47,175 nt of DNA, taken from IMG/VR virus record IMGVR_UViG_3300038379_000329, positions 1 to 47,175 of that record. One strand, written 5' to 3'. A program made the translations under genes and the position numbers. Below are positions 10,666 through 42,976 of the stretch, piece after piece. Numbering within the stretch: the first letter of the stretch is position 1; each line of letters opens with the position of its first letter. This DNA is from a virus. Lineage: Duplodnaviria; Caudoviricetes. The notes beneath the pieces were generated by a model. It worked only from the letters and a program-made list of their open reading frames with translations, had not been told where the DNA came from and did no database searches.

Positions 10666-12996
10666 ATGAAGCCGCAGGCGCTCAAGCTCACGCAGGATCA
10701 GCAGAACGTCATCGCCTGGCTCAACGCCGGCCACAACGTGTTCCTCACGGGCGTGGCTGGGACCGGCAAGACGGCGTGCCTGAACGCCTGGCTCGACCAG
10801 CTTCCGAAGGGGAAGAACGTCGCCATCACGGCGAGCACCGGCATCGCCGCGACGCACATCGGCGGAGGCACGCTGCACTCGTGGCTCGGGGCCACGCCCG
10901 AGCGCGACACGATGACCAGGCTGTGCAACGCGACCTGGGCGAAGCAGCACGGGCCGCGCCTGCGCGGCATCCACGCGCTGGTCATCGATGAGGTGAGCAT
11001 GGTGGACGCCGCCCTGTTCACGCTGGCCGAGGGCGCGCACCGCTCGGCGCGCCGCGACTCCGCCCGGCCGTGGGGCGGGGTCCAGGTGGTCCTCGTGGGC
11101 GACCTCGGGCAGCTTCCGCCCGTCGAGGCGGAGGAGAAGGGCTGGTGCTTCCAGTCGCCGGCGTGGGCCGAGTCGAACATCCAGGTGCTCGAACTCACGC
11201 AGGTGATGCGGCAAGGCGATCAGCGGTTCGCGGACATCCTCCGGCGCATCCGCGTGGGGTGGGTCGATGACGAGGTGCTGAACGTGCTCGCCTCGCGGCG
11301 CGCGGCCTTCGACCCGGACAGCCCCGGCACCGTGCGCCTCTACTCGCACAACCGGCAGGCCGATGAGGTGAACGAGGCCAAGCTCGCCCAGGTACCTGGC
11401 GAGGCGGTGGAGTTCCGGGCGCAGGACACCGGGAAGGAGCCGCACATCTCCCATCTGCGGAAGTCGTGCCTCGCCCCCGAGGTGCTCCGGCTCAAGGTGG
11501 GCGCGCGGGTCATGTTCGTGAAGAACGACATGGACGGCCGATGGGTCAACGGTTCGATGGGCGAGGTGGTGGACCTCGACGGCGGCGTCACGGTCAAGCT
11601 CAACTCGGGCACGGCGGTCCAGGTGGACCCCGTGACGTGGGGCAAGAAGCAGTGGGAGGACGAGAACACGCTGCGCTCGGTCGCCTCGCGCACGCAGTAC
11701 CCCCTCCGGCTCGCGTGGGCCATCACGATCCACAAGTGCGTCCACCCGGACACACTCGTGACGACTGAGGAGGGCCTCATCCCGCTTGGGGAGGCGGCTG
11801 AGTGCGGGCGTATCGCTACGCTGTCCGGGATGCAGAAGTACTCGAACTACGTGCGCAACCCGGTCCGCTCCGGCCTGCGCATCACCACTCGGCGCGGTTT
11901 CGAGCTTGCCGTCACGCCGGAGCACGGCCTGACGGCGTCCAAGGATGATGGTATGTTCACGCGCGTCAACGCGGAGGCGTTGGTCGTGGGGGATCGTCTG
12001 CGCTTGGTGCGGGGCATGTCCTACGGCGGCGTGAAGAACTTGACGCTGCCTCCCGCGACGGAGACGAGGGACACGCGCCGCGTGCCGTTCCGCGTTCCCG
12101 AGAAGATGTCCGCCGAGTTGGCGGAGTTTCTTGGGCTCATGGTCGCGGACGGGACGCTCTACAGTCGCGGCTTCCGTCTCGCGAAGCGTCATGCTGATGT
12201 GGTCGCGCGGTTCGCGAAACTCGGTGGCGCTCTCTTTGGGTTGCGCCCGAAGCTCTCGCAGCCGAAGCGGACCAGGGCCGACTTCGCGGAGTTCAACTCG
12301 ACGCCGGTAGCGGACTGGCTGCGCGCGATTGGTGGCATGGCTCCAAACGCCAAGGCCGTTCCAAGCGTCGTGCTGCGCAGCCCTGAGGCGATTCAGCGCG
12401 CGTTTCTGCGCGGGCTGTTCGAGGACGGCTCGGTTCACGTCAAGCGCGAGAACTTCTCACACATCGAGTGGTCCACGGCGTTCAAGCGCATGAGCTACGT
12501 CGTGCAGGTCATGTTGTTGCACCTCGGGATCCTCTCCTCGCGCCGCCGCATCACTCGTGTGATGCGCGGTGAGGAGCGGAGTTCGTGGCGGCTTTGGATC
12601 TACGGGGCGGACGCGCGCGCCTTCATTCGTCGGATCGGGTTCGTGTCGAGCTTCAAGATGTGTCGTGCGCAGTATGCGCTCGACGTGGACGCGAGCGACG
12701 ACATGGAGCAACTCGTCCCGGACAAGATTGTGTCCATCGAGCGGATCGAGATGCCGTCGGTGTGTGTCACGGTCCCTTACGCCGGTCGATTCATCCAGGA
12801 CGGCTTCGACGGGTTCAACTCGCAGGGCATGACCATCGACCGGGTGAGCATGAACCTGGCGGACGTGTTCGCGCCGGGCCAGGCGTACGTGGCGCTCTCG
12901 CGCTGCCGCAGCCTGGAGGGCGTCAACATCGAGGACTGGCGTGGGGCGGAGTCGATCATCGCTCACCCCATGCTCAGGCAGACTGTGAGGGCGTAG
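10666..12996 (+). CDS. PIF1/RecD-like SF1B helicase containing an intein
   Basis: FLTGVAGTGKT, ASTGIAA, TLHSWLG, IDEVSM, GDLGQLPPV, QVMRQ, QYPLRLAWAITIHK|SQGMT, GQAYVALSR. Confidence 0.93.
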   Translation: MKPQALKLTQDQQNVIAWLNAGHNVFLTGVAGTGKTACLNAWLDQLPKGKNVAITASTGIAATHIGGGTLHSWLGATPERDTMTRLCNATWAKQHGPRLRGIHALVIDEVSMVDAALFTLAEGAHRSARRDSARPWGGVQVVLVGDLGQLPPVEAEEKGWCFQSPAWAESNIQVLELTQVMRQGDQRFADILRRIRVGWVDDEVLNVLASRRAAFDPDSPGTVRLYSHNRQADEVNEAKLAQVPGEAVEFRAQDTGKEPHISHLRKSCLAPEVLRLKVGARVMFVKNDMDGRWVNGSMGEVVDLDGGVTVKLNSGTAVQVDPVTWGKKQWEDENTLRSVASRTQYPLRLAWAITIHKCVHPDTLVTTEEGLIPLGEAAECGRIATLSGMQKYSNYVRNPVRSGLRITTRRGFELAVTPEHGLTASKDDGMFTRVNAEALVVGDRLRLVRGMSYGGVKNLTLPPATETRDTRRVPFRVPEKMSAELAEFLGLMVADGTLYSRGFRLAKRHADVVARFAKLGGALFGLRPKLSQPKRTRADFAEFNSTPVADWLRAIGGMAPNAKAVPSVVLRSPEAIQRAFLRGLFEDGSVHVKRENFSHIEWSTAFKRMSYVVQVMLLHLGILSSRRRITRVMRGEERSSWRLWIYGADARAFIRRIGFVSSFKMCRAQYALDVDASDDMEQLVPDKIVSIERIEMPSVCVTVPYAGRFIQDGFDGFNSQGMTIDRVSMNLADVFAPGQAYVALSRCRSLEGVNIEDWRGAESIIAHPMLRQTVRA
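11737..12819 (+). mobile_element. Intein with LAGLIDADG homing endonuclease (361 aa) in the helicase
   Basis: Splits the conserved TIHK-SQG motif; begins CVHPDT, block B TPEH, LAEFLGLMVADG and FLRGLFEDG, ends GFN followed by Ser. Confidence 0.92.
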
Positions 12997-15794: not shown

Positions 15795-15823
15795 TTGACG
15801 GTTCGACCTGGGCCTGCCATGCT
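15795..15823 (+). promoter_or_regulatory. Sigma70-type promoter, conserved cassette copy 2
   Basis: TTGACG, 17 bp, CATGCT; hairpin TGTCC-CAAGA-GGACA; GGAGGACAAC-GTG. Confidence 0.75.
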
Positions 15824-16972: not shown

Positions 16973-17263
16973 ATGGCAGAGCAGCAGAAGGCCGGTCAGC
17001 ACTACATCACGGTGTTCGACCGGCTCGGCAAGGTGGTGTTCGGGGGCTTCGGGGTGCGCGTGGCCGTGGAGCCCGCTGGCGCGTGCGACTGCACGCACGA
17101 GCCCGACCACCACGACCGCCTGACCGGGGCGTGCCTCTACACGAGCCCGGTCCACGGCCCCTGCCCGTGCGCCGCGACGCCCCCGAGCACGCGCGCGGCG
17201 CTCACCAGCGCGCACCTGGCGCTCAAGCGGGTGCTGGAGTCGCAGGGCCTCCGGCTGCGCTAG
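16973..17263 (+). CDS. Small Cys/His-rich protein
   Basis: AGGAGG SD; CDCTH...H..C..CPC. Confidence 0.7.
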   Translation: MAEQQKAGQHYITVFDRLGKVVFGGFGVRVAVEPAGACDCTHEPDHHDRLTGACLYTSPVHGPCPCAATPPSTRAALTSAHLALKRVLESQGLRLR

Positions 17264-17286
17264 CTCATCCCGCCCTCCCGCATGGA

Positions 17287-17325
17287 CCGTCCTGGCCTTC
17301 CTCGCTACGGTGAGGGCCAGGACGG
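17287..17325 (+). terminator. Hairpin with cUACGg tetraloop (terminator or processing site)
   Basis: CCGTCCTGGCC/GGCCAGGACGG outer stem with an inner stem closing TACG. Confidence 0.45.
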
Positions 17326-17349
17326 CGGCATGTACGGGCCCTTCGATGC

Positions 17350-17409
17350 GCTCTCGTGTAGTGCTGCGACTTCGCTATACTCGGCGGAGGCGCAGCAGCA
17401 CGAGGGAGC
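17350..17409 (+). promoter_or_regulatory. RBS-sequestering hairpin with TATACT in its loop
   Basis: TGCTGCG/CGCAGCA and CTTCGC/GCGGAG stems; TATACT 17376-17381 in the loop; SD GAGGGAG in the 3' arm. Confidence 0.6.
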
Positions 17410-17415
17410 CCGCCC

Positions 17416-17700
17416 ATGTCTGAGTCGTCGCTCATCGAGGAAGCCTTCAAGGGCCTCGTCGCCGCTGGTCCTGTGGCGACCATCCTGGGCATCTTTTGCT
17501 GGGTTCTCTGGAAGCAGAACCAGATGCTCATCAACAAGATCGACAAGCAGAACACCAAGATGCTCAAGCTCGCCGTGCGCGTCCAGCGCGCGGTCGAAGT
17601 GCTCGCCGGCATCGAACATGAGGACACCGAGGTGGACCGCGTGCTCGATGAGGACGAGAAGGCCGAGCGCGAGCGCGAGCGCAAGCACACGGACGACTAG
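17416..17700 (+). CDS. Holin-like membrane protein (BhlA/UviB-like architecture)
   Basis: Single hydrophobic helix GPVATILGIFCWVLW, then coiled coil and a highly charged tail. Confidence 0.5.
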   Translation: MSESSLIEEAFKGLVAAGPVATILGIFCWVLWKQNQMLINKIDKQNTKMLKLAVRVQRAVEVLAGIEHEDTEVDRVLDEDEKAERERERKHTDD

Positions 17701-17712
17701 GGAGGTACGGTC

Positions 17713-18072
17713 ATGAGCGCGATGCCCGAGCCGGCGCCGAAGCCGGCCAGCGAGTCTGATGTGGATGCCGTGCTGGAGAAGATCGACGCCTGCCTCCCGA
17801 AGATCCACAAGCGGGCCGCCGAGGCGGCGAAGAATGGCGACACGCCGACCGACGGGTTCTCGCCGGCCAAGATCAAGCAGACGAAGATGGCTTTCCAGGC
17901 CATGAGCGAGGACAAGCTCCTCTCCGACTCGAACGAGAAGATGCTCGATGAGATGGAGAAGGAAGCCCAACGCGCCGCCGAGGAGCGGCGCAAGGACGAA
18001 GCAGTCGAGCGCCTCTACGGCAAGAAGCCGGAGCCGCAGAAGCGCACGCTGTTCTTCCGCGGGCGCCGCTAG
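17713..18072 (+). CDS. Hypothetical protein
   Basis: GGAGG SD, ATG; converges on the minus-strand block. Confidence 0.65.
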   Translation: MSAMPEPAPKPASESDVDAVLEKIDACLPKIHKRAAEAAKNGDTPTDGFSPAKIKQTKMAFQAMSEDKLLSDSNEKMLDEMEKEAQRAAEERRKDEAVERLYGKKPEPQKRTLFFRGRR

Positions 18073-18347
18073 CGGGGGTCGGGGAAGCGCAGCAGCTTCC
18101 CCATCTCCTCGCGCAGCGGGCCGTCCTTCACGCGCGCGACGCCCGGCGACGTGTAGCCGAGGCACATCACGGGGTGGTAGCAGTGGCCCCACCCGCAGGT
18201 CGCGCACAGGTCATCACGCCTGCCCTTGAAGCTCTCGCAGGGCTCGTCGCGCTCGCGCGGCTTGCGCGCCGGCCGCGCGGGCTCGGCCGCGTGCGCGCGC
18301 TCGAAGTAGTCCTGCATGTCCGGGTCGGTCGCCATGTCGGTCGCCAT
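18069..18347 (-). CDS. Small Zn-finger protein
   Basis: PCESF...LCATCGWGHCYH; GGAGG SD. Confidence 0.6.
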   Translation of the reverse strand: MATDMATDPDMQDYFERAHAAEPARPARKPRERDEPCESFKGRRDDLCATCGWGHCYHPVMCLGYTSPGVARVKDGPLREEMGKLLRFPDPR

Positions 18348-18550
18348 CACGGCCTCCGGGCGACGCGGAAGCGGTCCGGGGCGAGGCGGAAGGCGTTCTG
18401 AGAGATGACCCCGGGCTCGCGCGTGTCGAGCCACCACACGCGCAGGACGAGCCCGGCTCGCTCCTCGACGCGGAACTGCCGCGAGGCGCGAGCACCGCCG
18501 CCCACGTCCTCCCACACCTCGCCCACCTTCGGCTCATCGAACGTGCTCAT
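18347..18550 (-). CDS. Small SH3-like hypothetical protein
   Basis: PKVGEVWED...FRV; coupled overlaps. Confidence 0.6.
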   Translation of the reverse strand: MSTFDEPKVGEVWEDVGGGARASRQFRVEERAGLVLRVWWLDTREPGVISQNAFRLAPDRFRVARRP

Positions 18551-18993
18551 GCCATCGTCTCCGGCTCGTCGTTGTCCCACCCTTTCCACGGGGGGAGCGC
18601 CACCGTCTTGCCCGCGAGCGCGTGCCCGCAGTCACCGAGGAACTGAATCTGTCCGTCCCTGATGAACGAGTGGCAGCGCGGCCTCACCGGAACCTCGGTC
18701 GTCCGGCACGGCCCGCCGTGCCCGAGTTCGCGCAAGCAGCCGGGCACGGCGCCCGGGCTGGCGCCGCACGAGTCCGCGAAGGCGACGGGCTTGACCTTCA
18801 TGTCCGCATCGCCGTGGACGAGCAGCGAGGGCTCGAACGTGGGACGGGTCATCGAGCCGTTCCACTTCCACGCGCGCTGCGGGTGCCGCACGTCCACCGG
18901 GTGCGGGCCGGCGCAGCCAGGGCACCAGAGCAGGTAGCCCTCCCACTTCCCGTCCTCGGACGTGTAGCGGGAGAGCTTGACGGGCTCGCTCAC
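18547..18993 (-). CDS. DUF6527-like protein
   Basis: WCPGC..H.V..WKWNG...PTFEPSLLV...CHSFIRDGQIQFLGDCGHALAG.TV.L. Confidence 0.7.
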   Translation of the reverse strand: MSEPVKLSRYTSEDGKWEGYLLWCPGCAGPHPVDVRHPQRAWKWNGSMTRPTFEPSLLVHGDADMKVKPVAFADSCGASPGAVPGCLRELGHGGPCRTTEVPVRPRCHSFIRDGQIQFLGDCGHALAGKTVALPPWKGWDNDEPETMA

Positions 18994-20168
18994 TTGTGGC
19001 CGCCCCCGACCAGCGCCTCGCCCATGCCGTCGCTCGCCGGCCCGAGCACCAGGTCCGCGAAGCGGTCGCCGTAGCGGGACGCCTTGAGGCACCGCACGGC
19101 CTCGGAGATGACCACGCGAATCTCAGCGTCGGCCGCGTCGGCTGCTCTCATCGAAGCGATGTGCCGCCAACCCCACACCGGGGCCGTGAAGCACATCTGC
19201 GTCTCCAGTGCGTTGCCGAGGAACCCACGTGCGGCGCCCCGCGCCTGCTTGCGTGCGTGCTTCTTTCGATAGGGCGTCTCCTTGGGGAGCTTCGCCGCGA
19301 GCCACTCCTGCAACTCGTCGCAGATGGCGCGGTAGGTCTCCTGGGCCGCATGCTGCGCCCCGCGGAGCACGTCTGCGAACACCGGGACGTGCGGGTGCTC
19401 CTCGATGAACTTGTGGATCAGCGGGTGCCAGTGCCACGCGCTCTCGCCCTCTTCGCAGTAGCGAGTCGAGCGCTGCGACATCGCGAAGCGATGTCTGACT
19501 TGTTCGTGGCTCATTCCACGCGAGCCCACCAAGTAGAGCGTGAGCCACTTCTCGCTGTCGGTCTCGGGCTCCGCGAAGGCGAGCGGGCTGTGCAGGAGCC
19601 ACACGGGCCAGGTGTCGCCCACGTCGTGCGCCTCGACCAGCAGCGGCACCAGCGCCGTCCAGAGCGTGCGCAGGCGGTAGCCGATGCAGCGCCAGAGCGT
19701 GGGCGTCTCGCCGTGCGCCGGGAAGCCGTGCTCGGTGCGCAGGCGCTCGCTCCACTCCTCCCACTCGACCACGGCGCGCACGTTCATCGTGACGCGGATG
19801 TTCACCTCGTCGCCCACGGGGCCGGTCACGTCGAGCTTCCAGCGGAGCCAGCAGCCCGGGCGGTTCGTGAACGCGAGCACGATGTCCTCGCGCGCGCCCG
19901 GCGGGACGTGCTGGAACTCGACCGTGCGGACGTAGTGCTCCAGCACCGAGTGATGCCCCGTCTCCATCACGTTCTTGAGCGTGTCCTTCGTGCCGCGCCC
20001 CTTCGGCTGGCCCTCGTCGTCCAGGCCCATCGAGTCGTAGCAGAGCCGGGTGCAGACCTCGATGAGTTGCTCCCCGCTCGTGCCCTTCATCTGCTCGCTG
20101 TGCGGCTTGCCGACCTGCGGCGGGACCATGATTTCCGGCCCGCCGTCCCACACCAGGAACGCCTTCAT
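18990..20168 (-). CDS. thyX: Flavin-dependent thymidylate synthase with a large internal insertion
   Basis: RLCYDS, GHHSVLEH, SRGMSHEQVRHR..SQRSTRY, AR.AAR.FL, W.H...R....A.AEIR; GGAGG SD before ATG 20168. Confidence 0.88.
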   Translation of the reverse strand: MKAFLVWDGGPEIMVPPQVGKPHSEQMKGTSGEQLIEVCTRLCYDSMGLDDEGQPKGRGTKDTLKNVMETGHHSVLEHYVRTVEFQHVPPGAREDIVLAFTNRPGCWLRWKLDVTGPVGDEVNIRVTMNVRAVVEWEEWSERLRTEHGFPAHGETPTLWRCIGYRLRTLWTALVPLLVEAHDVGDTWPVWLLHSPLAFAEPETDSEKWLTLYLVGSRGMSHEQVRHRFAMSQRSTRYCEEGESAWHWHPLIHKFIEEHPHVPVFADVLRGAQHAAQETYRAICDELQEWLAAKLPKETPYRKKHARKQARGAARGFLGNALETQMCFTAPVWGWRHIASMRAADAADAEIRVVISEAVRCLKASRYGDRFADLVLGPASDGMGEALVGGGHK

Positions 20169-20272
20169 GCTGTGCCTCCCAAACGCTGCGGCGAGCCCGC
20201 CGTTGGGCTCGCCGCGGTCGGATCGAGTCTCGCACGCCACGCAAGCGGCGCGTGGCTTATCTCATCCCGGCG

Positions 20273-20572
20273 CTACGCCTCGCCGCGCAGGTACTTGCGC
20301 ACGTCGGCCTTGATCTTCGCCTTGCGGCGCTGCTCGGCCTTCGTCGGCGGCTTCTTGGGCTTCTTCGGCCGCGACGTGAGCATGAACGTCACGTCGAACG
20401 TGAGCGCCACCTCGACCACGCAGCCGCAGGAGCACTCCACCTCGTCGGTGTTCTCCGTGTCATCGAACTCGACTTCGTAGACGATGAAGCTCTGCTCGCA
20501 CTCGGGGCACGCGAGCTTCACGTCCACGACCGGCGGACCGGAACGGGTTAGGTCGATGATGGGGTTCATCAC
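20273..20572 (-). CDS. Zn-ribbon protein with basic tail
   Basis: CPEC...ECSCG. Confidence 0.65.
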   Translation of the reverse strand: MMNPIIDLTRSGPPVVDVKLACPECEQSFIVYEVEFDDTENTDEVECSCGCVVEVALTFDVTFMLTSRPKKPKKPPTKAEQRRKAKIKADVRKYLRGEA

Positions 20573-21087
20573 GCCGCCTTCCCGGCCGCGCTCTCGCGCG
20601 TGATGACCACGCGGACCACGAGCGGTGCCTCGACCTCGTGGCCGTTCAGGTCCACGACCACCACGGCGGCGTTCGTGTCCTCGGCCGCGACCAGCCCGAG
20701 GAGGTGCGCCAGGGCGCGCGCGTCCACGGTCGCCTCCACCTCATCGATGACCCGCTGCTTGCGCTGGACGTGGATGCCCAGGGCTGAGAGCTTCTGGTCC
20801 GCGATGTTCACCGCCACCGACTTCACGTCCGACGCCATCTCGTCCTCCTCGTCCTCGCGCTCCTCGAACTTGACGCCGGCCGCGCGGAGCGCGCGCTTGA
20901 TGTCGGCCAGCGTGTTCTTCCAGGCCCGCCAATCGGCGGCCCGTGATGATGGGTTGTCCTCGGTGTACACCGTGAGGGTCTGCCCACCTGGGAGCCCCCA
21001 CAAGTCGCCGTGAGTCACACGGCGGATCTTCTTGCCGAAGCGCGCGAGTAGCTCACGCGCTGCGACCTCCTCACTCGTCGCGCCCAT
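20569..21087 (-). CDS. Protein with an N-terminal HicA-like domain
   Basis: RRVTHGDLWGLPGGQTLTV...PSS...RAWKNTLADIKRA resembles the phage HicA-like pattern. Confidence 0.5.
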   Translation of the reverse strand: MGATSEEVAARELLARFGKKIRRVTHGDLWGLPGGQTLTVYTEDNPSSRAADWRAWKNTLADIKRALRAAGVKFEEREDEEDEMASDVKSVAVNIADQKLSALGIHVQRKQRVIDEVEATVDARALAHLLGLVAAEDTNAAVVVVDLNGHEVEAPLVVRVVITRESAAGKAA

Positions 21088-21373
21088 GCAGCCTCCACGA
21101 GTACGATGTGGCGTGGCGCCCGTCCGGCGTCGTGCCGGCCCAATGCGCCTCCACCGGGTTCTCCGCGGCCGTGGCGAGCGCCATGCGCGCCTGCTCGATG
21201 AGCCGGCTCCAGACCACTACGGCGTCCAGGGAAGCGTGGTCGCCACCGTCGAGCGCGACGATGACCTGGCCGAGCATCACGTCCGCGGCGACCAGCGCCT
21301 CCTGCGCCTTCGCCAGAGCGATGACCACGGGCTCGAAACGCGCGTGGTCCTCCGTTGTCGGTGACCGCCTCAT
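21071..21373 (-). CDS. Hypothetical helical protein
   Basis: AAGGAG SD; ATGA coupling. Confidence 0.55.
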   Translation of the reverse strand: MRRSPTTEDHARFEPVVIALAKAQEALVAADVMLGQVIVALDGGDHASLDAVVVWSRLIEQARMALATAAENPVEAHWAGTTPDGRHATSYSWRLHGRDE

Positions 21374-21546
21374 GACGCCTTCTCCTTCCGCTCACGCTCG
21401 CGCTTCACCACGCGGCGGATGCGGTTCTGGCCGTAGTCGTCCGCGCGGAGCCCCAGGCGCTCCGCGATGAGCCTGTTCGAGAGGCCCTGGCGGTGGAGCG
21501 CCATGATGCGCTCCACCTGGGCCGGGGTGAGTTGCTCCCGGGGCAT
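21370..21546 (-). CDS. 58-aa helix-turn-helix protein (absent from ORF track)
   Basis: MPREQLTPAQVERIMALHRQGLSNRLIAERLGLRADDYGQNRIRRVVKRERERKEKAS; Hin/HTH_38-like pattern. Confidence 0.7.
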   Translation of the reverse strand: MPREQLTPAQVERIMALHRQGLSNRLIAERLGLRADDYGQNRIRRVVKRERERKEKAS

Positions 21547-21550
21547 CGCT

Positions 21551-22045
21551 CTACCCCTGGAGCCTGGCCGCCGCCTCGCGCGCGGCGCCGAGCGTCTTGA
21601 ACGTGGTGGCCCGCTCGGTGAGCGAGGAGACGGCGTTCTGGCCGGACCACACCTCCACGAAGGTGAAGATGCTCTGGCCGAGCCCGTCCTGGCCGTGCTG
21701 GATCGCGATGGGGTTGCCGCGCGCCGTGCGCTTGTCGGTCACCAGGAGCCCGCCCACCTCCGCGATGTGGGCGAAGCCCCCGGCGACGAACGTGGACGTG
21801 AGCAGCAGCGAGTCGCCCGTCTTGGTGCCCTCACCGCCGAGCGTCGTGCCCTCCTTGTACTCGCGCCCCGTGCGCTTGTTCGACAGTTCGTACGCCACCT
21901 GGTTCCCGTCCGGGCCGGTGAGCGGGAGCCCGAGTTCCTTCACGAGCGCGGGCAGAAGCTCCGCGACGTTCGCGTCGTCGGGAAGCTCGACATCGAACTC
22001 CTGATTCGTGTCGGCGCGCACGAGAGTCACTGACACCTGAGCCAC
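21551..22045 (-). CDS. Ubiquitin-like (EsaB/YukD-type beta-grasp) domain ending in VAGG, fused to a 74-aa C-terminal domain
   Basis: aa 1-90: DVELPDDANVAELLPALVKELGLP..GPDG..VAYEL..KRTGR....TTL..EG.KTGDSLLL...VAGG. Confidence 0.8.
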   Translation of the reverse strand: MAQVSVTLVRADTNQEFDVELPDDANVAELLPALVKELGLPLTGPDGNQVAYELSNKRTGREYKEGTTLGGEGTKTGDSLLLTSTFVAGGFAHIAEVGGLLVTDKRTARGNPIAIQHGQDGLGQSIFTFVEVWSGQNAVSSLTERATTFKTLGAAREAAARLQG

Positions 22046-22090
22046 GTTGTCCTCCAGTTCGTCGGGGGTTGTTGATGTCCGACGAACCGG

Positions 22091-22119
22091 AGCATGGCAT
22101 ACCCAGGTCGCCCCGTCAA
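22091..22119 (-). promoter_or_regulatory. Sigma70-type promoter, conserved cassette copy 3 (drives the Ubl gene)
   Basis: TTGACG, 17 bp, CATGCT; hairpin TTCGTCGG/CCGACGAA; GGAGGACAAC-GTG. Confidence 0.78.
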
Positions 22120-22129
22120 GCCCCCTGTT

Positions 22130-22345
22130 CTAGTCCGCTCGGATCGGGGCGCCGTCCTCGTCGTAGCTCACGATGCGGCCGGGCGGCTTCTGCCTCCGAT
22201 GCCGCTCCTGGAACTTGCAGGTCGGGACGTGGATGCTGCGCCCGCAGTAGTCGCACTTGCCATCGGCGCGCAGCTTCGCGCGGCGGTCAAGCTCCGCGCG
22301 AAGCTCTTCCTCCTCGTACTCGTCCAGGTCGCGCGGGTAGCCCAT
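22130..22345 (-). CDS. Small Zn-finger protein
   Basis: CDYCG...CK...H; TGATG coupling. Confidence 0.65.
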   Translation of the reverse strand: MGYPRDLDEYEEEELRAELDRRAKLRADGKCDYCGRSIHVPTCKFQERHRRQKPPGRIVSYDEDGAPIRAD

Positions 22346-22668
22346 CAGTCCGGCTCCCGCGGGTCGTAGTCGTCGTACGGCTCGTCGTGGTGGACGATGG
22401 TGATGGTGAGCCCTTCGGTGCTCCGGCCCTTGAGCATCTCGCGCGCCTCGACCTCGACGCGCCGCGGGCGGTCGCGCTCCTCGCGCGGCCCGAGGAGCTT
22501 CGCGAGCGCGTCGAGGCACGAGTCCACGGTCTGCGGGCTCATCTCCGCCACCTGCGCCATGCCCTCGCGGTAGGCGAGCAGGCACGAGCGGCAGCGGCCC
22601 ACGCCGTCCGCGCTGGTGACGAACATGATGCCCGCACAGCCGGGCGTCTCGCAGTCGAGGTTGCTCAT
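22345..22668 (-). CDS. Hypothetical protein with N-terminal Zn ribbon
   Basis: GGAGGAG SD; CETPGC..CRSC. Confidence 0.65.
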   Translation of the reverse strand: MSNLDCETPGCAGIMFVTSADGVGRCRSCLLAYREGMAQVAEMSPQTVDSCLDALAKLLGPREERDRPRRVEVEAREMLKGRSTEGLTITIVHHDEPYDDYDPREPD

Positions 22669-22958
22669 CGACTCTCCTCCGCTGCCAGGGCCGCAGCCCC
22701 AGCGAACCCGTCCACGAACTCGCGAATCTGCGCCTCGCTGTAGCCCCGCTTCTTCCTGGTCTGGAACCACCCGAAGCTCGTGAAGAACACCGCGGGGTCC
22801 AGGAAGCCCGCGAAGCTCGGCTCGGCCGCCGCCTTCTTGCGAAGCTCCAGGAAGGTCAGCGCGCCCTGGTAGTAGATGGAAAGCTCCGCGGCCGTCTTGG
22901 CGTGCGTGACGCACTTGCCCTTGGGGCCGCACTTGTCGCATCCCGGGCGGTTACCCAT
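22665..22958 (-). CDS. Hypothetical protein
   Basis: CDKC...C..H; coupled overlaps. Confidence 0.6.
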   Translation of the reverse strand: MGNRPGCDKCGPKGKCVTHAKTAAELSIYYQGALTFLELRKKAAAEPSFAGFLDPAVFFTSFGWFQTRKKRGYSEAQIREFVDGFAGAAALAAEESR

Positions 22959-23286
22959 TGGAACGAGCCCGCAGCGCCGCGAGCGCCTTCGCGTGACCAG
23001 CGCGCGCCTGCTCCTCCGTGGCGTACCGCACGGACGAGTTCCCCGGGAAGATCATCGTCTCGAAGATCATGGGCGGCACGTCCGCGCCGAGCATGTAGCC
23101 GATGCCGTGGTCCAGGCCGAGCCAGATGGTGGACACCGCCACCTCGCCCACCTTGTCCTGTGCGAGCACGCGGTAGCTGTCGTCGTTGATGCGCTCGCGC
23201 CAGAACGCGGTCGTGCAGGGCTTGCCCTCACGGTCGTAGATCATGGCACGGTCGCCCACCTTCACGATGTCGTCGTCGCTACCCAT
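22951..23286 (-). CDS. Conserved-looking phage hypothetical protein
   Basis: VSTIWLGLDH...P.IFETMIF...RYATEEQARAGH, a motif seen in phage small proteins. Confidence 0.7.
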   Translation of the reverse strand: MGSDDDIVKVGDRAMIYDREGKPCTTAFWRERINDDSYRVLAQDKVGEVAVSTIWLGLDHGIGYMLGADVPPMIFETMIFPGNSSVRYATEEQARAGHAKALAALRARSNG

Positions 23287-23656
23287 CGGTCACCTCCGAC
23301 TGGCCGAGCGCGGCCGTCGTCTCGCTGGGGCCCGCGCAGGACGTGCAGACGTGCTGCACCTTCTTCCGCTGGCCGGTCATGCGGTCCTTGACCCACGCGC
23401 GCGTCGTGGCCGTCACGCCGCACACGTAGCAGCGCGGCGGAGGTGCGGGCTCGCCCTCCACGAAGGGCACGAAGCGCGGCACGCCAGGGCGCGCCTCCTC
23501 GTGCCACTCCGCGAGCGGGCGCGCCCACAACTGGCCCGCCTCGTCGCCGGCGCGCTGGTAGACGACGAGTTCCTCGCGCGTCTCGCTGTGCAGGGCCACG
23601 CCATGCACGAGGTAGATGCGACCTTCCTTCCAGTGTCTCCAGCGGGTGTTCTTCAC
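23279..23656 (-). CDS. DUF1653-family protein plus C-terminal Zn finger
   Basis: WRHWKEG..Y.V.GVALHSETREELVVYQ....LWARPL..W.E....PRF. Confidence 0.8.
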   Translation of the reverse strand: MKNTRWRHWKEGRIYLVHGVALHSETREELVVYQRAGDEAGQLWARPLAEWHEEARPGVPRFVPFVEGEPAPPPRCYVCGVTATTRAWVKDRMTGQRKKVQHVCTSCAGPSETTAALGQSEVTDG

Positions 23657-23892
23657 TTGGCCCCCTTGTTGGCGATGCGCTCCAGGCGCTTCGCGTCCGC
23701 CTCGTTCGCCGCGCCCTTACGGATGCGCGCCGCCACCTCCTGCAAGAACTCGCGGTCGTCGGGGTAGCTGTAGTCCACCTGCTTGTGGATCGGCCCGCGG
23801 CAAACCGCGCAGACCATCACCTCGCCGGCCGCGAGCGGCTTCCCGCAGCCGTTGCAGACCAGCGCCACCTCTCTCGCGCTCTCCCTACTCAT
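23653..23892 (-). CDS. Small Zn-ribbon protein
   Basis: CNGCG...CAVC. Confidence 0.6.
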   Translation of the reverse strand: MSRESAREVALVCNGCGKPLAAGEVMVCAVCRGPIHKQVDYSYPDDREFLQEVAARIRKGAANEADAKRLERIANKGAK

Positions 23893-24205
23893 CGTCGTCC
23901 TCCTTGAGCTTCTTCCACTCCTCGCCGCTCTCGTCGCCGTCCTCGACCTTGTGGCCGAACAGCATCGTCGTGCGCGTCTCGCTGGACGACGTGAAGGGCT
24001 TCCCGCACCACGGGCAGTAGCGGAAGCCGAGCACCGGCTTCGTCGTGCCGTCCGGCGCCTGCGCGTCGGGCAGGTCGAAGCGCATGAAGTCCGCGAGGAG
24101 CGTGTCCGGCACGCCGCACACCTCCTCGGGGAGCACCGGCCCCAGGAACACGGTCACCTTCCTGCGCATGTCGCAGCAGGTCGTCGGCTCGTCGCTCATC
24201 GTCAC
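23885..24205 (-). CDS. Small Zn-binding protein
   Basis: CCDM...FRYCPWCGK. Confidence 0.65.
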   Translation of the reverse strand: MTMSDEPTTCCDMRRKVTVFLGPVLPEEVCGVPDTLLADFMRFDLPDAQAPDGTTKPVLGFRYCPWCGKPFTSSSETRTTMLFGHKVEDGDESGEEWKKLKEDDDE

Positions 24206-24417
24206 TCCCCCCGGTTGCGCATGTCCTGCGCCATCTCGTTCTCGGCTCCCTGCTCACCCTGCGCATACGCCTGCGTGAAGATGAGCTTCGCGACGCCGGG
24301 CTGGAACACCTCGACGGCGCAGATGGTCTGCCACACCTCGGGCGCTTGGCGCGCCGCGAACTTCTTCCACTCCTCGAAGTCGCGCGCGGTGCGCCGAGCA
24401 GCGCGGCTCGTGCTCAT
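24202..24417 (-). CDS. Hypothetical protein
   Basis: GAGG SD; GTGATG coupling. Confidence 0.55.
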   Translation of the reverse strand: MSTSRAARRTARDFEEWKKFAARQAPEVWQTICAVEVFQPGVAKLIFTQAYAQGEQGAENEMAQDMRNRGE

Positions 24418-25247
24418 CACTTCCTCGCCTTCTTTACGCGCGCCTCGACGCGCTTGCGGTTGCCGTAGAACCCGTCTCCCATCGCGACCTCGCGGCAGTC
24501 CACGGGCACGAGCGCCGAGTGGCCGAGCGCGTCGAGCGCTTCGTACACGGTGCGAGCGTGCGGCCCGAGGAGCGCGAGCGGGAGGTTCGCGACCCACGCC
24601 ACCTGCATGATGGTCATGACGAAGCGGCCCTTCTTGTCGTGCTTGGGCTGGAGCGGCCCACCCCTCATCGAGATGAGCATGGCGAGGTAGTGGGCGGCCT
24701 CGCGCGGTAGCGCCAGCCGGTGGAGCTTCTGCACGCGCGACTGGAAGTGGGGCGCTTGCTCGTCATCGCCAGGGTACGGGCGCTGGACGGCTGCGCGCAG
24801 TCCGTCGCCCGCCATGTCGTAGTAGCCTCGCGTGTCGCGGTCATCGTAGAGGTACGGCTTCACGTTCTCGAACACCCATCGCGTGGGGTCGAAGATCCTC
24901 GGGCCGTGAGGCGGCGGGTCGAAGTCGGGGCAGTCGCACCTCTGGCACTCGTTGATGAACCCGCGCGCGTGCTCGTCCTTGAGATGTCCGCACCCGCGGC
25001 ACTCGGCCACGTCGGTGAGGAGCGGGTCGAAGTCGTCGGGCTCGACTTCAACCCACCCGTGATGCGTGATGCCGCGCCCCGCGAACGGCGACTGCTTGGA
25101 GACGGGACCGCGCCACAAGCCGTAGCGCAGGGTCCCCTCGGTCACACCGGCGGCGAGGCACAGGCCGGCAATCTCGTGGCAGCGTCCCGGCCATTGCTCG
25201 ACCGGAACGCCGATGAGCTTCGCCACGTCGTGCGGGTCCAGCTTCAC
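24417..25247 (-). CDS. Papain/transglutaminase-like protein (Cys-His-Asp) with an inserted Zn finger
   Basis: GRC23HEIA, HH63GWVE and IFD120PT match the G.C...A / H.W.E / DPT signature; GGAGGT SD. Confidence 0.6.
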   Translation of the reverse strand: MKLDPHDVAKLIGVPVEQWPGRCHEIAGLCLAAGVTEGTLRYGLWRGPVSKQSPFAGRGITHHGWVEVEPDDFDPLLTDVAECRGCGHLKDEHARGFINECQRCDCPDFDPPPHGPRIFDPTRWVFENVKPYLYDDRDTRGYYDMAGDGLRAAVQRPYPGDDEQAPHFQSRVQKLHRLALPREAAHYLAMLISMRGGPLQPKHDKKGRFVMTIMQVAWVANLPLALLGPHARTVYEALDALGHSALVPVDCREVAMGDGFYGNRKRVEARVKKARK

Positions 25248-25265
25248 GTATCACCTCCGGCGCGG

Positions 25266-25294
25266 AGCATGACACGCTCCGGTCGCACCGTCAA
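25266..25294 (-). promoter_or_regulatory. Sigma70-type promoter, conserved cassette copy 4
   Basis: TTGACG-GTGCGACCGGAGCGTGT-CATGCT on the minus strand, then GGAGGTGATAC-GTG. Confidence 0.7.
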
Positions 25295-26157
25295 GCCCAG
25301 ATCAACTCCGCGAGCGCGAGCAGGCGCTCGAACTGCGCCATGGCCACCAGACCTGCGCCGCGCTGGACACGTACTGCGTCCCGACCGAGCGCCGCCAGGT
25401 CGCGCAAGGTCATCGTCCCGTGCATGGTCTGGAGCTTCCGCACCACGCTCCCCGCGGGGCCCTTGATGCCCAGGTCGTCCAGCTTCGCGTCCGGGTCGCA
25501 CCACGTCGGCTTGCGCTCCTCCAGCACGCACGGCGCGCAGAACAGCCCGCCGCATCCAGGGCCGCCGGGCTCCCCGAAGATCGGAGCGTAGAACACCCCC
25601 TTGCGTCCGCAGCCCCGAGAGCAGATATTCGGGTCCTCGGGAGTCGGCGCCGAGACGATCCGCCGGGCCCCACCAGGTACCTGGCGAGGCTCCTCCCAGG
25701 CGCCGGCGCGCTTCTTGACCAGCCGCTCCGCCATCTCGCACGCCTCGGTGTCCGGCGCGTCGATGTCCCGCAGGCCGTTCTCAGCGGCCTCGGTGCCGGT
25801 CTGGAAGTAGATGTCGCTCTCGTCCTCAGTGGGGATGTCCTCGGGGCGGATCGCGCCGAACGCCATCGCGAGGTTCACCGCCGCGTGGTGCCGATGCGCC
25901 GAGAGCCAGCCCCGACACGCCGTGGGCTGGCCCGTGCGGTTCGTCTGATGGCACCAGAACGTGGCAAGCTCGGGCACGCGCACGGTGGCCGGCGTGCCGT
26001 CCGCGTTCGGGCACGGCACCTCGTGGCCCGTGTCGTACAGGCGGAGCTTCTCGTACTCGTCGCGCGACCACACGCCGCTCGGGTGCGAGCGCAGGTAGGG
26101 GCACGACGAGCACGCGCGGCCCGTGACCTTGAGCGGCTTCATCCGGCGCTTGCTCAT
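25291..26157 (-). CDS. DUF6283-like protein with a C-terminal RNA polymerase alpha-CTD-like (HhH) domain
   Basis: CSSCPY...PSGVW...EYEKL..YD...F.CHQ...C.GW; C-terminal LDDLGI...TLRDLAAL.......GAG....QFERLL. Confidence 0.6.
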   Translation of the reverse strand: MSKRRMKPLKVTGRACSSCPYLRSHPSGVWSRDEYEKLRLYDTGHEVPCPNADGTPATVRVPELATFWCHQTNRTGQPTACRGWLSAHRHHAAVNLAMAFGAIRPEDIPTEDESDIYFQTGTEAAENGLRDIDAPDTEACEMAERLVKKRAGAWEEPRQVPGGARRIVSAPTPEDPNICSRGCGRKGVFYAPIFGEPGGPGCGGLFCAPCVLEERKPTWCDPDAKLDDLGIKGPAGSVVRKLQTMHGTMTLRDLAALGRDAVRVQRGAGLVAMAQFERLLALAELIWA

Positions 26158-26414
26158 CGCATCCCCTTCGCGCGCTTCTCGAACTCCGCCACGCGCTTCT
26201 TGTCCGCCTCGGTCATCTTCTTGTGGCACCTCGGGCACCGGAACGTCCCGTCCGGCTCGTGGTACCAGCCGATGGGGTGGTCGCACTTCGCCACGCGCTC
26301 CTTGTGAGGCGCGCGAGTCTGCCACCCCGGCGTGCGGCAGGGATCGCCCTGCCACGCCCCGCACTTCGGACACGGCGGGAGGTTCCACTTCGCCGCGTGC
26401 ATGATGTGGCTCAT
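26154..26414 (-). CDS. Double Zn-finger microprotein
   Basis: CPKCGAWQGDPCRTP...PHKER (same motif as 24..533) plus CDH..CPRC. Confidence 0.65.
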   Translation of the reverse strand: MSHIMHAAKWNLPPCPKCGAWQGDPCRTPGWQTRAPHKERVAKCDHPIGWYHEPDGTFRCPRCHKKMTEADKKRVAEFEKRAKGMR

Positions 26415-26686
26415 GGCGCTTCCGTGAACGGCAGCATCACCTCGATCCACTTCCGCCGCGTGTACGCGTCCTTGTGCTGGAACACGCGCCCGTTCGACGT
26501 GAGCGCGAACATGCTCGTCTCCGCCACCTGAATCTGGACGATGCGCTCCTTCCCCGTGCCGTTGCAGCGGGCGCAGACCATCTCCAGCAACACGCCCGGC
26601 CCGACATGGCGCCTCAGCGCGTCCGCGTCCTTCGCGCTGGGCTGGCAGGCGTCGCACGGCCCCAGCGTCGCTTCCTTCTCGCTCAT
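26411..26686 (-). CDS. Small Zn-finger protein
   Basis: CDAC...CARCNGTG (DnaJ-type repeat). Confidence 0.6.
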   Translation of the reverse strand: MSEKEATLGPCDACQPSAKDADALRRHVGPGVLLEMVCARCNGTGKERIVQIQVAETSMFALTSNGRVFQHKDAYTRRKWIEVMLPFTEAP

Positions 26687-27090
26687 GCATCACCTTCCAG
26701 CTTCTTCGCGAGCAGATCGCACGCATCAGCGATCCCCGCGAGGCGGTAGTACCCCACGTCTCGGTCGTAGTGCACGGCGTCGAGGCGCTCCATGAGCCAG
26801 ACGACGAGGTCCGCGTGGTCGCACTTGGGGGCGTTCGATAGCAGGTTCGCCACCTCCCACCAGTCCGCAGTCCCATCAGCCCACCGGACGTAGGCGTGCT
26901 TCCGATTTTTCAGCGCGAGCACTGTCCCGCTGCCACTTGCCGACTCCGATAGCCGCTCACGGTTGAGCCACACGGTGTCGCCGGTGTCGATGTCGATAGT
27001 CACTTGATCTTCCTTCGTGGCCCGGAGCGCCCGGAGCTTCTCGGTCTCCTCATCGTTCATGGGCTTCTCGCTCTCCCCTCTCGCCCCCAT
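26683..27090 (-). CDS. Hypothetical protein with SH3-like segment
   Basis: GDTVWL...GTV...AYVRWADGT; alternative start at 27060. Confidence 0.6.
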   Translation of the reverse strand: MGARGESEKPMNDEETEKLRALRATKEDQVTIDIDTGDTVWLNRERLSESASGSGTVLALKNRKHAYVRWADGTADWWEVANLLSNAPKCDHADLVVWLMERLDAVHYDRDVGYYRLAGIADACDLLAKKLEGDA

Positions 27091-27212
27091 GAAGGGGGCG
27101 CTGCTATGCTCGCCCGGGGAGCCTAGATTGTTTTCAGTGGACCCGCGAGCAGAATCGTCGGATCAGTGCATCTCCAAGCACGCACGGTGTCGGACGAAGG
27201 GGAGGATGTGAC

Positions 27213-28670
27213 ATGCCCAGGGAAGCACGGCCGAAGGGGCCCAAGATCATCACGCATCGTGAGCCTGACGCCAGGAAGGAGCGATGCCAGGTCTGCAAGC
27301 AGACGATGGAGAGGGTCACGCCAGGGCACCTGCGCGAGCACGGACTGAGCATCGCTCGCTATGAGCGTATGTACGGGGCGCGTCGCGCGCCTTCGCGTGC
27401 CGAGCGCGGATCGGTGAGTGATCCGACCGACCCGCCGACGGACCTCATCGCGACTGTAGGCGAGCGCCTCACCGAGTCGAAGGTCTGGATCGCGTGCCTC
27501 GCGGACGAGGTGGGCGAGAGGATGCTCAACGGCCCTCTACGCCATCGCCTGACCGCCATGCTCGCCACCATGCTCCACCAGCGGGCGCGCGTTCACGGCG
27601 AGGCCATCGCGATCCTCTCCTCGGCGCTGGAGGAGGTGCGCCAGGAGTGGCGGACTACGCACGGCGGCGCCGGTGGTGGCCCCACGGACACCGACACCCT
27701 CCTGCGCATGATCGACCGCGCGGCGAAGCTCGTGGAGTCGAGCGAGGACGCCGTGCAGCGGACCATCAAGCTCGCCCTGGAGGAGCAGAAGGCCGCGCAC
27801 CAGTACGCCGACAACATGGGGCCGACCCTGTACACGGGCACCGGCGAGAAGCTCGACATGCCCGCCGGCCTCCCGGCGAGCGACCGCGAGACCATGAGGA
27901 ACCTGCTCGCCTTGATCGGCAAGGCGGCGAACGAGCGGGGCACCCTCGACGCCGAGGTAGTCGAGCGCGGCGATGCGCATACCAGCGTACCTGGCGATGC
28001 GCAAGCCCCCTCCCCCACCCCCCACCCCTCCCCCCTCGTGGACGACGATGGGCATACCCGTGTACCTGGCGATGCCCATCGCGACCCTCGCGAGTTCGCC
28101 CAGGGTAACGAGCCCCCCACCCCCCTCCCCCACCCGGCCCCTGGGGGGCCCACCACCCCCGCCGGCGCCCCCCACCCCCCTGGCCCTGGGAAGCGGACCG
28201 CGACGCGCACGCGGGGATCGGTGACTGATCCGACCGCCTCGACGGCCACGGCGAGCACCTCGACCCCCACCCCCTCCCGGCGCCCCCACCCCCGGCCGCT
28301 CGATGCGGACGAGCCCGTCAACGACCCCGGGCCGCGGAGCGCGCAGGCGGGGGGCCCCGCACAGCACCGGAAATCTGTGAGCGAAGTCCAGGGGGTCGGA
28401 CCGGGGGGTCATCGTCAAGGCGCTCCCGACGAAGGGGGCGGTGATGGGAGCGATACTCCCTCCCCTGCCGATGCATCGCTGGGTGAACCTGGACGGAAGC
28501 GCCGGGGCGGTCCGAGGCCGCCGGGTGACGGGGGGCGGGCCAAGCGGGAGAAGCATCGTCAGGAGTGGCAGGCGTTCCGTGCTGCCGAGCAGACCGCCAA
28601 GGTGGGCAAGGGGCGGAAGGGGAAGCGGGGGCCGAACCGAGGGAACGACCGGGGCGGGCGCAGGGCGTGA
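27213..28670 (+). CDS. Zn-finger/helical protein with a long low-complexity C-terminus (possible small terminase or regulator)
   Basis: CQVC...HLREHGL...YERMYG; helical core to about 27960, then C-rich and G-rich tracts; GGGGAGG SD. Confidence 0.55.
   Translation: MPREARPKGPKIITHREPDARKERCQVCKQTMERVTPGHLREHGLSIARYERMYGARRAPSRAERGSVSDPTDPPTDLIATVGERLTESKVWIACLADEVGERMLNGPLRHRLTAMLATMLHQRARVHGEAIAILSSALEEVRQEWRTTHGGAGGGPTDTDTLLRMIDRAAKLVESSEDAVQRTIKLALEEQKAAHQYADNMGPTLYTGTGEKLDMPAGLPASDRETMRNLLALIGKAANERGTLDAEVVERGDAHTSVPGDAQAPSPTPHPSPLVDDDGHTRVPGDAHRDPREFAQGNEPPTPLPHPAPGGPTTPAGAPHPPGPGKRTATRTRGSVTDPTASTATASTSTPTPSRRPHPRPLDADEPVNDPGPRSAQAGGPAQHRKSVSEVQGVGPGGHRQGAPDEGGGDGSDTPSPADASLGEPGRKRRGGPRPPGDGGRAKREKHRQEWQAFRAAEQTAKVGKGRKGKRGPNRGNDRGGRRA
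27972..28080 (+). repeat. Two copies of a hairpin-forming element with a shared 16-nt loop
   Basis: TGCGCAT-ACCAGCGTACCTGGCG-ATGCGCA and GATGGGCAT-ACCCGTGTACCTGGCG-ATGCCCATC. Confidence 0.65.
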
Positions 28671-42738: not shown

Positions 42739-42976
42739 CCGCCAGGTACCTGGTGAGAAGGACCCCTCCCACCACCTCGCCCTCTCCCAAGAAGGGGCTC
42801 GTCCCGGGACCCCATGCTACCACTTTGCGCGTACATCAAGCTCGTGAGAGCTAAGTACGAAGAACTATTCTGTTTAGAGTACGTACCTGCCCACGATGAC
42901 AGGGGGGAGGGCGTGAGGTAGGTGCGCGTGTCCTGGCGATGTGATACCACTTTGCAGTCTGGCTCAGGAGGTGGTC

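Follow-up and report, generated by a model that had tools for sequence, protein, structure and literature searches.

A phage gene joining a Planctomycetota-type ubiquitin-like protein in frame to exchangeable cargo

Ubiquitin-like (Ubl) pathways of bacteria are known mostly from the host side, through the Bil, Bub and CBASS systems. In Bil (type II) operons the Ubl, E2, JAB and E1 are separate genes in the order Ubl-E2-JAB-E1 (bilA-bilB-bilC-bilD), and BilA ends in V-A-G with a short tail that is trimmed by the JAB. The end of E. aridi BilA is reported to read V95-A96-G97-A98, with the JAB (BilC) cutting after G97, also when BilA is fused to GFP (bioRxiv 2023.09.26.559546), and the Bil DUB of Hor et al. 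is described as cleaving a Ubl-GFP fusion (bioRxiv 2023.09.04.556158). The Bub (type I) system includes a linear Ubl fusion, BubAB, that is processed by a JAB at a conserved Gly; cleavage of this Ubl-E2 fusion by BubCD has been reported (bioRxiv 2024.11.21.623953). In the available part of a survey of cellular Ubl architectures by Gong et al., the add-ons are N-terminal, not C-terminal (bioRxiv 2024.11.21.623966). Eukaryote-like operons of Ubl, E1, E2 and JAB genes are also found in prokaryotes (Iyer 2006; Kaur 2020; Caldiarchaeum ubiquitin-Rpn11). Kaur et al. describe Ubl systems in Planctomycetes, one of them coupled to Pup, as well as the release of Ubls from fusions by JABs; the available part of that paper makes no mention of phage capture of a Ubl (PMC7159879).

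On the viral side, pestivirus ubiquitin insertions (BVDV Osloss, CP Rit) and other viral ubiquitin fusions join a host tag in frame to the front of a viral protein. In cytopathic pestiviruses a cellular hydrolase is reported to release the authentic viral N-terminus from the ubiquitin insertion (PMC8310069). As an older, unrelated case, lambdoid phages encode TAPI, a beta-grasp protein with an internal Gly that is fused to a further domain and was proposed to be cut by the TAPK JAB (PMC1779556), and Asgard viruses are described as carrying E1-like genes rather than a tag (bioRxiv 2021.07.29.454249). Another paper (PMC11354881) contained nothing relevant. Within the open-access literature, we found no report of a phage with its host's conjugation tag fused to a swappable cargo; the operon tables of the Bil and Bub papers could list the host operon described below.

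The phage gene presented here likewise puts a host-type tag in frame before a viral protein. It differs from the pestivirus and eukaryotic fusions in its likely bacterial host, in a bacterial Ubl with a single conserved Gly, in the putative JAB metalloprotease and in a cargo that varies between related phages. TAPI is ThiS/MoaD-like and belongs to a tail module with its own JAB and a fixed partner, whereas the present protein closely copies a host conjugation tag, and its gene lies among small genes in the neighbourhood of ThyX, in a record where no JAB was found. Unlike the Bil Ubls, which are cellular, this fusion is phage-coded, and while Bub fuses its Ubl to an E2 within the operon, the tag here is joined to a phage protein that varies, and the gene belongs to no operon.

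The Ubl-cargo gene and its junction

The window, that is, the whole stretch of DNA analyzed (47,175 nucleotides), is a linear virus record of IMG/VR, about 32% complete, in which a Pfam scan found phage-type genes for a Pif1/Dda helicase, a dCTP deaminase, ThyX and a DNA methylase. The Ubl-cargo gene is a single open frame at 21551-22045 on the minus strand, with a GTG start and a product of 164 aa that reads ...TSTFVAGG-FAHIAE... across a stop-free junction. Its features, all on the minus strand, are as follows.

22091..22119, minus strand: promoter-like motif TTGACG-17-CATGCT, common to two further window sites and to the Ubl genes of loci L009 and L019; below the threshold of a consensus scan
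22054..22090, minus strand: 12-bp inverted repeat between the -10 box and the ribosome-binding site (predicted fold)
22051..22055, minus strand: ribosome-binding site GGAGG, 5 bases 5' of the GTG start (sequence)
21779..22045, minus strand: Ubl domain, beta-grasp, residues 1-89, ending TSTFVAG (Pfam PF08817, AlphaFold2 pLDDT, Foldseek, 85-88% identity to operon copies)
21779-21781, minus strand: Gly89 codon (sequence)
21776..21781, minus strand: junction Gly89-Gly90, putative cleavage site (similarity to L009 and L019 ends after codon 89; BilA precedent)
21554..21778, minus strand: cargo, 75 aa from Gly90 (GFAHIAE...; GC3 1.00)

An earlier note, made from the letters alone, had described a Ubl that runs without a stop into 74 further residues. 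This proved correct, as there is one open frame and the tail is coding: its codons have a GC content of 1.00 at position 3 versus 0.52 at position 2. The open frame alone would be weak evidence, because at the 70% GC of the window 44% of random junctions into this DNA run for 74 codons without a stop, and 12% are open and also coding-like. Two assemblies carry the junction. A contig from run X1, which is possibly the source sample, spans 21000-22515 with 0 differences, and a 160-base contig from a second study (run X2) crosses 21663-21822, also with 0 differences. The read-through sequencing error that the note had named as a refutation is thereby ruled out, and the Ubl-cargo gene is real rather than an assembly error.

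It is extremely unlikely that the gene is an accident, in which a host gene, once captured, was deprived of its stop and runs into adjoining DNA, or the join was misassembled. The share of random junctions that stay open would allow it, and cellular read-through probably explains some of the longer-tailed database entries (the Ubl of P0048 is identical to that of operon copy L032). Against it stand the second study's contig, the GC3 of 0.77-1.00 in the tails of all six phage-type genes checked, the matches of five of six queried cargos to genes of cultured or complete phages, and the low dN/dS of the Ubl, given below. An internal start of the cargo was rejected as well; in-frame GTG codons occur at codons 97 and 102, and the nearest SD-like sequences lie 0 and 14 bases away from them.

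No E1, E2 or JAB gene was found in the record by Pfam on 72 ORFs, by tblastn with the host enzymes or by a Prok-JAB search, which bears out what had been read from the window's letters; as the record is about 32% complete, a protease could still be encoded elsewhere in the phage genome.

The gene had also been credited with a strong promoter of its own. A consensus promoter scan of 17000-28000 returned 0 promoter-like sites and so lends no support to the claimed strength. The site is still a real motif: TTGACG-17-CATGCT has 3 copies in the window and 0 in 100 shuffles, and it precedes the Ubl gene in L009 and L019 as well. The other window copies lie at 15795-15820 (plus strand) and 25269-25294 (minus strand), and the ribosome-binding stretch GGAGGACAACGTGGC is common to the Ubl gene and the copy at 15795. 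L009 has a hairpin of different sequence (about 2034-2078) at the position equivalent to the inverted repeat of the window, with fold energies, taken without a shuffle control, of -20.8 (window) and -17.6 kcal/mol (L009). The repeat could possibly act as an operator or in translational control.

Elsewhere in the window, a 2344-aa protein (35704-42738, plus strand) has 2H phosphoesterase and NUDIX domains and otherwise no family match; it may be a polyvalent phage protein. LAGLIDADG domains lie inside the Pif1-like helicase (10666-12996, plus strand) and inside a 1105-aa protein (42941-46258, plus strand) that also has intein splicing and Hint matches.

A beta-grasp tag with one conserved glycine and its source operon

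Residues 6-82 match Pfam YukD (PF08817, E 4.6e-11), and AlphaFold2, run with a 48-row alignment, models residues 1-90 as a beta-grasp with high confidence (pLDDT 83-97) and the tail with low confidence. Foldseek matched the Ubl model to Caldiarchaeum ubiquitin (6FNO, 6FJ7), ubiquitin, SUMO and BilA (8TYX), with target TM of about 0.7-0.8 versus ubiquitin, SUMO and BilA; the nearest true fold matches were Caldiarchaeum ubiquitin, at 24-25% identity. BVDV insertions stood at rank 1 among the viral fold matches, where a baculovirus GP37 entry was also present. A sequence search of the PDB with the Ubl gave no match. The model and its matches confirm the beta-grasp that had been proposed for the N-terminal half.

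The VAGG end that had been pointed out is present in the sequence, but the pair of glycines is not what is conserved. Among aligned relatives, Gly89 shows no variation (28/28 and 48/48), and several host Ubl genes stop directly after it, while residue 90 is Gly in 11/27 long-tailed and 8/43 short-tailed relatives (19/70 overall). By alignment, the conserved end is VAG, with Gly89, and not Gly-Gly. The domain thus has two marks of a ubiquitin-like modifier, the beta-grasp fold and a conserved reactive terminal Gly, and lacks a conserved di-Gly.

A first protein search returned 66 proteins including the window's own, all matching over the Ubl (56-98% identity). Scans of genomes and metagenomes gave 12 and 28 loci, and 37 of these 40 were tabulated, two partial matches and one distant match being left out. 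At 30 of the 37 loci the Ubl has a tail of 0-16 aa after Gly89 and an E2 gene directly downstream, with E1 upstream and JAB after the E2 wherever the contig extends. Six loci (5 distinct) have no E1, E2 or JAB match and tails of 61-176 aa, and one (L030, on a 1.1 kb contig) has a 1-aa tail and no enzyme match. Over residues 1-89, the phage Ubl is 85-88% identical to the operon copies. The operon enzymes match ThiF, UQ_con and JAB, the JAB being of the Rpn11 type, and the catalytic motifs GxGALG/CYEC/SC, HPN..C and HTHPG..S..D are intact in operons L001, L002 and L008. The earlier note had proposed to look at where cellular homologues end and sit: they end at or just after VAG and lie in E1-Ubl-E2-JAB operons. 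Its suggestion of a Ubl captured from an operon with E1, E2 and JAB is supported.

Planctomycetota MAG titles are attached to 7 of the 10 full, close loci from the genome collection. The Ubl was found at an E of about 1e-50 in 13/18 genomes of one Planctomycetota class, as a single copy in these incomplete assemblies. In a sample of the phylum, 30/251 genomes matched; 11 did so at the 1e-50 level, all in that class, and 19 were distant. The distant loci that were fetched have Ubls adjoining E1 and JAB in 7/7 cases. By homology and gene order, the source of the Ubl is shown to be a conserved, near-core E1-Ubl-E2-JAB conjugation operon of this class, which makes a member of the class the likely host of the phage. 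The operon (L001-L008, L048-L056) often precedes an FHA or TPR Ser/Thr kinase gene, and no RING E3 was found among the operon neighbours scanned. In appearance it is a ubiquitin system for housekeeping or signalling, and seemingly an uncharacterised one.

There is next to no probability that the Ubl is an accessory protein of type VII secretion (YukD/EsaB) with no conjugation role. The name that Pfam gives the domain points that way, as do the ubiquitin-like domains of ESX-5 EccD among the fold matches. YukD loci are described as adjoining ESAT-6 and FtsK genes in Firmicutes and Actinobacteria (PMC1779556); here, however, no family of ESAT-6/FtsK type was seen among 30 neighbouring proteins scanned, and the close relatives belong to E1-Ubl-E2-JAB operons and have an invariant terminal Gly. 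Membership in type VII secretion was rejected, as the neighbours are E1, E2, JAB and kinases.

The host operon is of the same general kind as the eukaryote-like prokaryotic operons mentioned above. Like Bil, it has separate Ubl, E2, JAB and E1 genes, but the order differs, and PADLOC gave no match for the Ubl or the E2 and weak ones for BilC (best E 2.7e-5) and BilD (about 2e-7 over part of the profile). Identity with Bil was rejected on both gene order and profiles. Bub forms Tyr and Ser oxyesters and carries BubE, whereas the E1 and E2 here have Cys-type motifs and are separate genes; DUF6527 was not found in host genome G001. Identity with Bub was rejected on these three grounds.

A fixed joint and swapped cargo

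Locus L009 has the same promoter, Ubl, upstream genes, ThyX and genes at 17416-18072 as the window, and its cargo of 142 aa is unrelated. The similarity of the window to L009 and L019 stops after codon 89, for L009 at the DNA level. L014 and L041 have downstream genes in common and different cargos, and P0003, 98% identical over the Ubl, has a third cargo. Altogether, the 24 cargos of the close clade, for few of which the genomic context was seen, fall into 17 unrelated groups at E 1e-3. These alignments show cargo swapping at an orthologous locus and a junction fixed at Gly89. Of the 24 cargos, 23 open with G, A, V, S or T and none with F, L, W, Y, R or K, compared with a small residue after Gly89 in 16/43 short-tailed copies.

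Five of six cargo queries match INPHARED phage genes, the window's own cargo being the miss. The alignment of the L009 cargo to UOF79200, a free-standing phage protein, begins at residue 2 of the latter (E 1e-11), and that of the P0017 cargo (DUF7417) to SEA_DEXERS_62 likewise begins at residue 2 (E 3e-26). For two others the junction is not at residue 2: in the P0003 comparison, cargo residue 10 pairs with residue 28 of the relative, and the match of the L019 cargo falls inside a 291-aa protein. The cargo start is thus residue 2 of a free gene in 2/4 pairwise comparisons, the window's own cargo being outside these as it has no relatives. It should be noted that a junction at residue 2 is equally expected if a cassette of promoter, ribosome-binding site and Ubl was inserted before a gene, without cleavage.

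Searches of Pfam, PHROGs, a large protein collection, the ESM Atlas and INPHARED returned no relatives of the window's cargo. A fold search of each half had been suggested in the earlier note; the Ubl half answered clearly, with Foldseek matches to ubiquitin and BilA, and the cargo half did not, its matches being weak and to uncharacterised phage proteins of 60-80 aa (best E 0.08). The single-sequence model of the cargo (pLDDT 69.5) predicts a small beta-sheet and a C-terminal helix. A common role of the cargos as DNA mimics was considered and dropped, because they have no charge pattern in common. The label 'OCR-like' on the match of P0017 belongs to a neighbouring gene and not to the DUF7417 cargo family.

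The Ubl has a dN/dS of 0.11 (range 0.06-0.18; 15 pairs among 6 phage-type copies) versus 0.08 among 16 host copies, although, if there were several captures, selection acting in hosts may account for part of the pairwise phage-type values. These substitution ratios show purifying selection on the tag. Val4 occurs in 16/22 and Thr76 in 17/22 long-tailed copies, and both in 0/16 host copies; together with the purifying selection, these common residues suggest residence in phages rather than a fresh capture each time. A quick tree on 89 columns, from which P0044 and P0061 were removed by a motif filter and in which L030 is labelled 'operon' despite having no enzyme match, nests the long-tailed copies among Planctomycetota-type copies; the number of captures was not drawn from it.

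The phage status of these loci varies. Among them, the window alone comes from a record classified as viral. Synteny or ThyX connects L009 and L027 to the window, and the others are phage-like by inference; most long-tailed proteins are known without genomic context, although contigs of 75-113 kb exist for P0005 and P0025. INPHARED gave no match to the Ubl. IMG/VR yielded no confirmed further viral locus when searched with the Ubl, a Ubl alignment, the distant long-tailed P0085 or the QPEITAG subfamily (see below), and nothing when scanned with the L009 cargo. The contig of L009 (JAHFBW010000099.1) is binned in a Candidatus Eisenbacteria MAG, in which the operon E2 was not found, and is likely misbinned.

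Other fusions were seen at greater distance. P0202, a Ubl-E2 fusion within the same Ubl family that is joined at IAG, recalls BubAB. P0061, P0062, P0065, P0066, P0070, P0072 and P0074 form a more distant Ubl branch (SH-aLRT 98 in the quick tree) with long unrelated tails, possibly a second capture. P0085, P0087-P0092, P0094, P0097, P0098 and P0102 belong to a distant subfamily that ends QPEITAG, in which many near-identical Ubls carry unrelated tails of zinc-ribbon, membrane and lipoprotein-like types. Ubl-cargo fusion may, on this subfamily, be wider than phages.

Proposed cleavage and alternative readings

A cargo in frame right after the reactive Gly is the arrangement of a linear ubiquitin fusion. 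We consider it probable, if only just, that the Ubl-cargo protein is a linear Ubl-fusion precursor, cut by the host JAB into a host-compatible Ubl and the cargo. The gene would be expressed from the phage promoter, and the host JAB would cut the fusion after Gly89, as BilC cuts BilA-GFP. The expected products are Ubl(1-89) and a cargo that begins Gly-Phe, a start that would be native-like; the freed Ubl would feed into the E1/E2 pathway of the host, where it would supplement the host tag or compete with it. The tag would then be the constant, selected part and the cargo a passenger that gains a leader for expression or folding, as the passengers of eukaryotic ubiquitin-fusion genes do.

The pro-protein design put forward in the earlier note agrees with the in-frame cargo after the reactive Gly and with the BilA-GFP precedent. 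Its cleavage after Gly-Gly does not hold, since the conserved residue is Gly89 and BilA is cut at V95-A96-G97, before A98. Because Gly89 is conserved and BilA is cut after VAG, the cargo would start Gly-Phe, and with a cut there the N-terminal Phe that the note had read as an N-degron does not arise. The ClpS N-degron rule calls for a bulky hydrophobic first residue after cleavage; the window's cargo would start with Gly, and 0/24 cargos begin with F, L, W or Y.

A broader proposal goes further than maturation and is one that we make tentatively: phages of one Planctomycetota class may use the tag of a near-core operon as a mobile N-terminal cassette, with the host JAB maturing many phage proteins and the freed Ubl being conjugated by the host E1/E2, reprogramming or swamping host tagging.

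The fusion might instead be left largely uncut, or cut slowly, and occupy the host JAB, E1 or Ubl partners, blunting a Ubl-based anti-phage response. We regard this decoy or inhibitor reading as rather unlikely. In its favour, all six full-domain copies known from their context to lie outside operons (window, L009, L014, L019, L023, L027) are fused, and Val4 and Thr76 set the phage-type copies apart from the host copies. Bil is reported to conjugate its Ubl to phage tail proteins and to require its DUB (bioRxiv 2023.09.04.556158). In phage Lorelei, a gene of the DUF7417 cargo family adjoins one with the annotation 'OCR-like antirestriction protein', and the L019 cargo has a weak match (E 8e-4) to a protein labelled as an inhibitor of type I restriction. 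However, an intact VAG with a small next residue in 23/24 cargos fits a substrate better than a blocker, a blocker has no need of 17 unrelated cargos, and the host operon is single-copy, near-core and often beside Ser/Thr kinase genes, unlike patchy defence loci. The idea of the earlier note that the protein both senses and counters ubiquitin-based immunity is, for an operon that is not Bil and is single-copy and near-core, a guess.

Somewhat less probable again is that the Ubl is solely a leader that aids early phage proteins in their translation, folding or stability, the later fate of the tag being immaterial to the phage. Unrelated, freely swapped cargos would suit a leader, as would a gene placed directly behind the phage promoter motif with a good ribosome-binding site, and the eukaryotic ubiquitin-ribosomal protein fusions are explained likewise. 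The whole Ubl is nevertheless held at a dN/dS of about 0.11 (hosts 0.08), tighter than a generic leader seems to need, and relatives of several cargos occur as free genes in other phages.

The cut could in principle be made by the phage itself. About 2.6 kb downstream of the Ubl-cargo gene, on the same strand (18547-18993, minus), the window encodes a stand-alone DUF6527 (BubE-like) protein with invariant CxxC/H, PS, CH and D..H motifs, which narrowly passes the Pfam cut-off (24.3 versus 23.6 bits; 35.2 bits in another scan). BubE is described as a Ser-His protease that cuts BubA-GFP (bioRxiv 2024.11.21.623953), and Ser56, His108, Asp121 and His124 are invariant in 9/9 sequences of the window protein's subfamily. 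Its motif reads C-H-S-F, though, in place of the C-x-S-H register of BubE; its relatives occur in 66 INPHARED phage records, whereas the Ubl matches nothing there; no Ubl lies near the 9/9 related genes examined; and it was found neither in seven Ubl-fusion loci, including the syntenic L009, nor in the L009 assembly. Because of the different register, the occurrence in Ubl-less phages and the absence from the seven fusion loci, we rate self-cutting by this protein as highly unlikely. The predicted complex of the Ubl with it scored 0.01, a value that gives no verdict and carries no weight in this rating. Independently of the fusion, the protein could be a Ubl isopeptidase encoded by the phage.

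Under the preferred reading, the Ubl-cargo protein is a precursor that the host JAB would mature. Whatever the fate of the fusion, phage-like elements repeatedly keep a host tag under purifying selection, fused exactly at its reactive glycine, in a field where a phage-coded counter to Bil has appeared as speculation (bioRxiv 2023.09.04.556158). This retention of the tag suggests that a bacterial ubiquitin operon which is highly conserved and uncharacterised matters in infection. If the cut is real, the logic of the ubiquitin-fusion gene arose independently in bacterial viruses. If phages do turn the freed tag on host tagging, bacteria would offer a case of ubiquitination hijacked by viruses, one that converged with the ubiquitin fusions of pestiviruses and baculoviruses and that would mark the operon as important enough to be a phage target.
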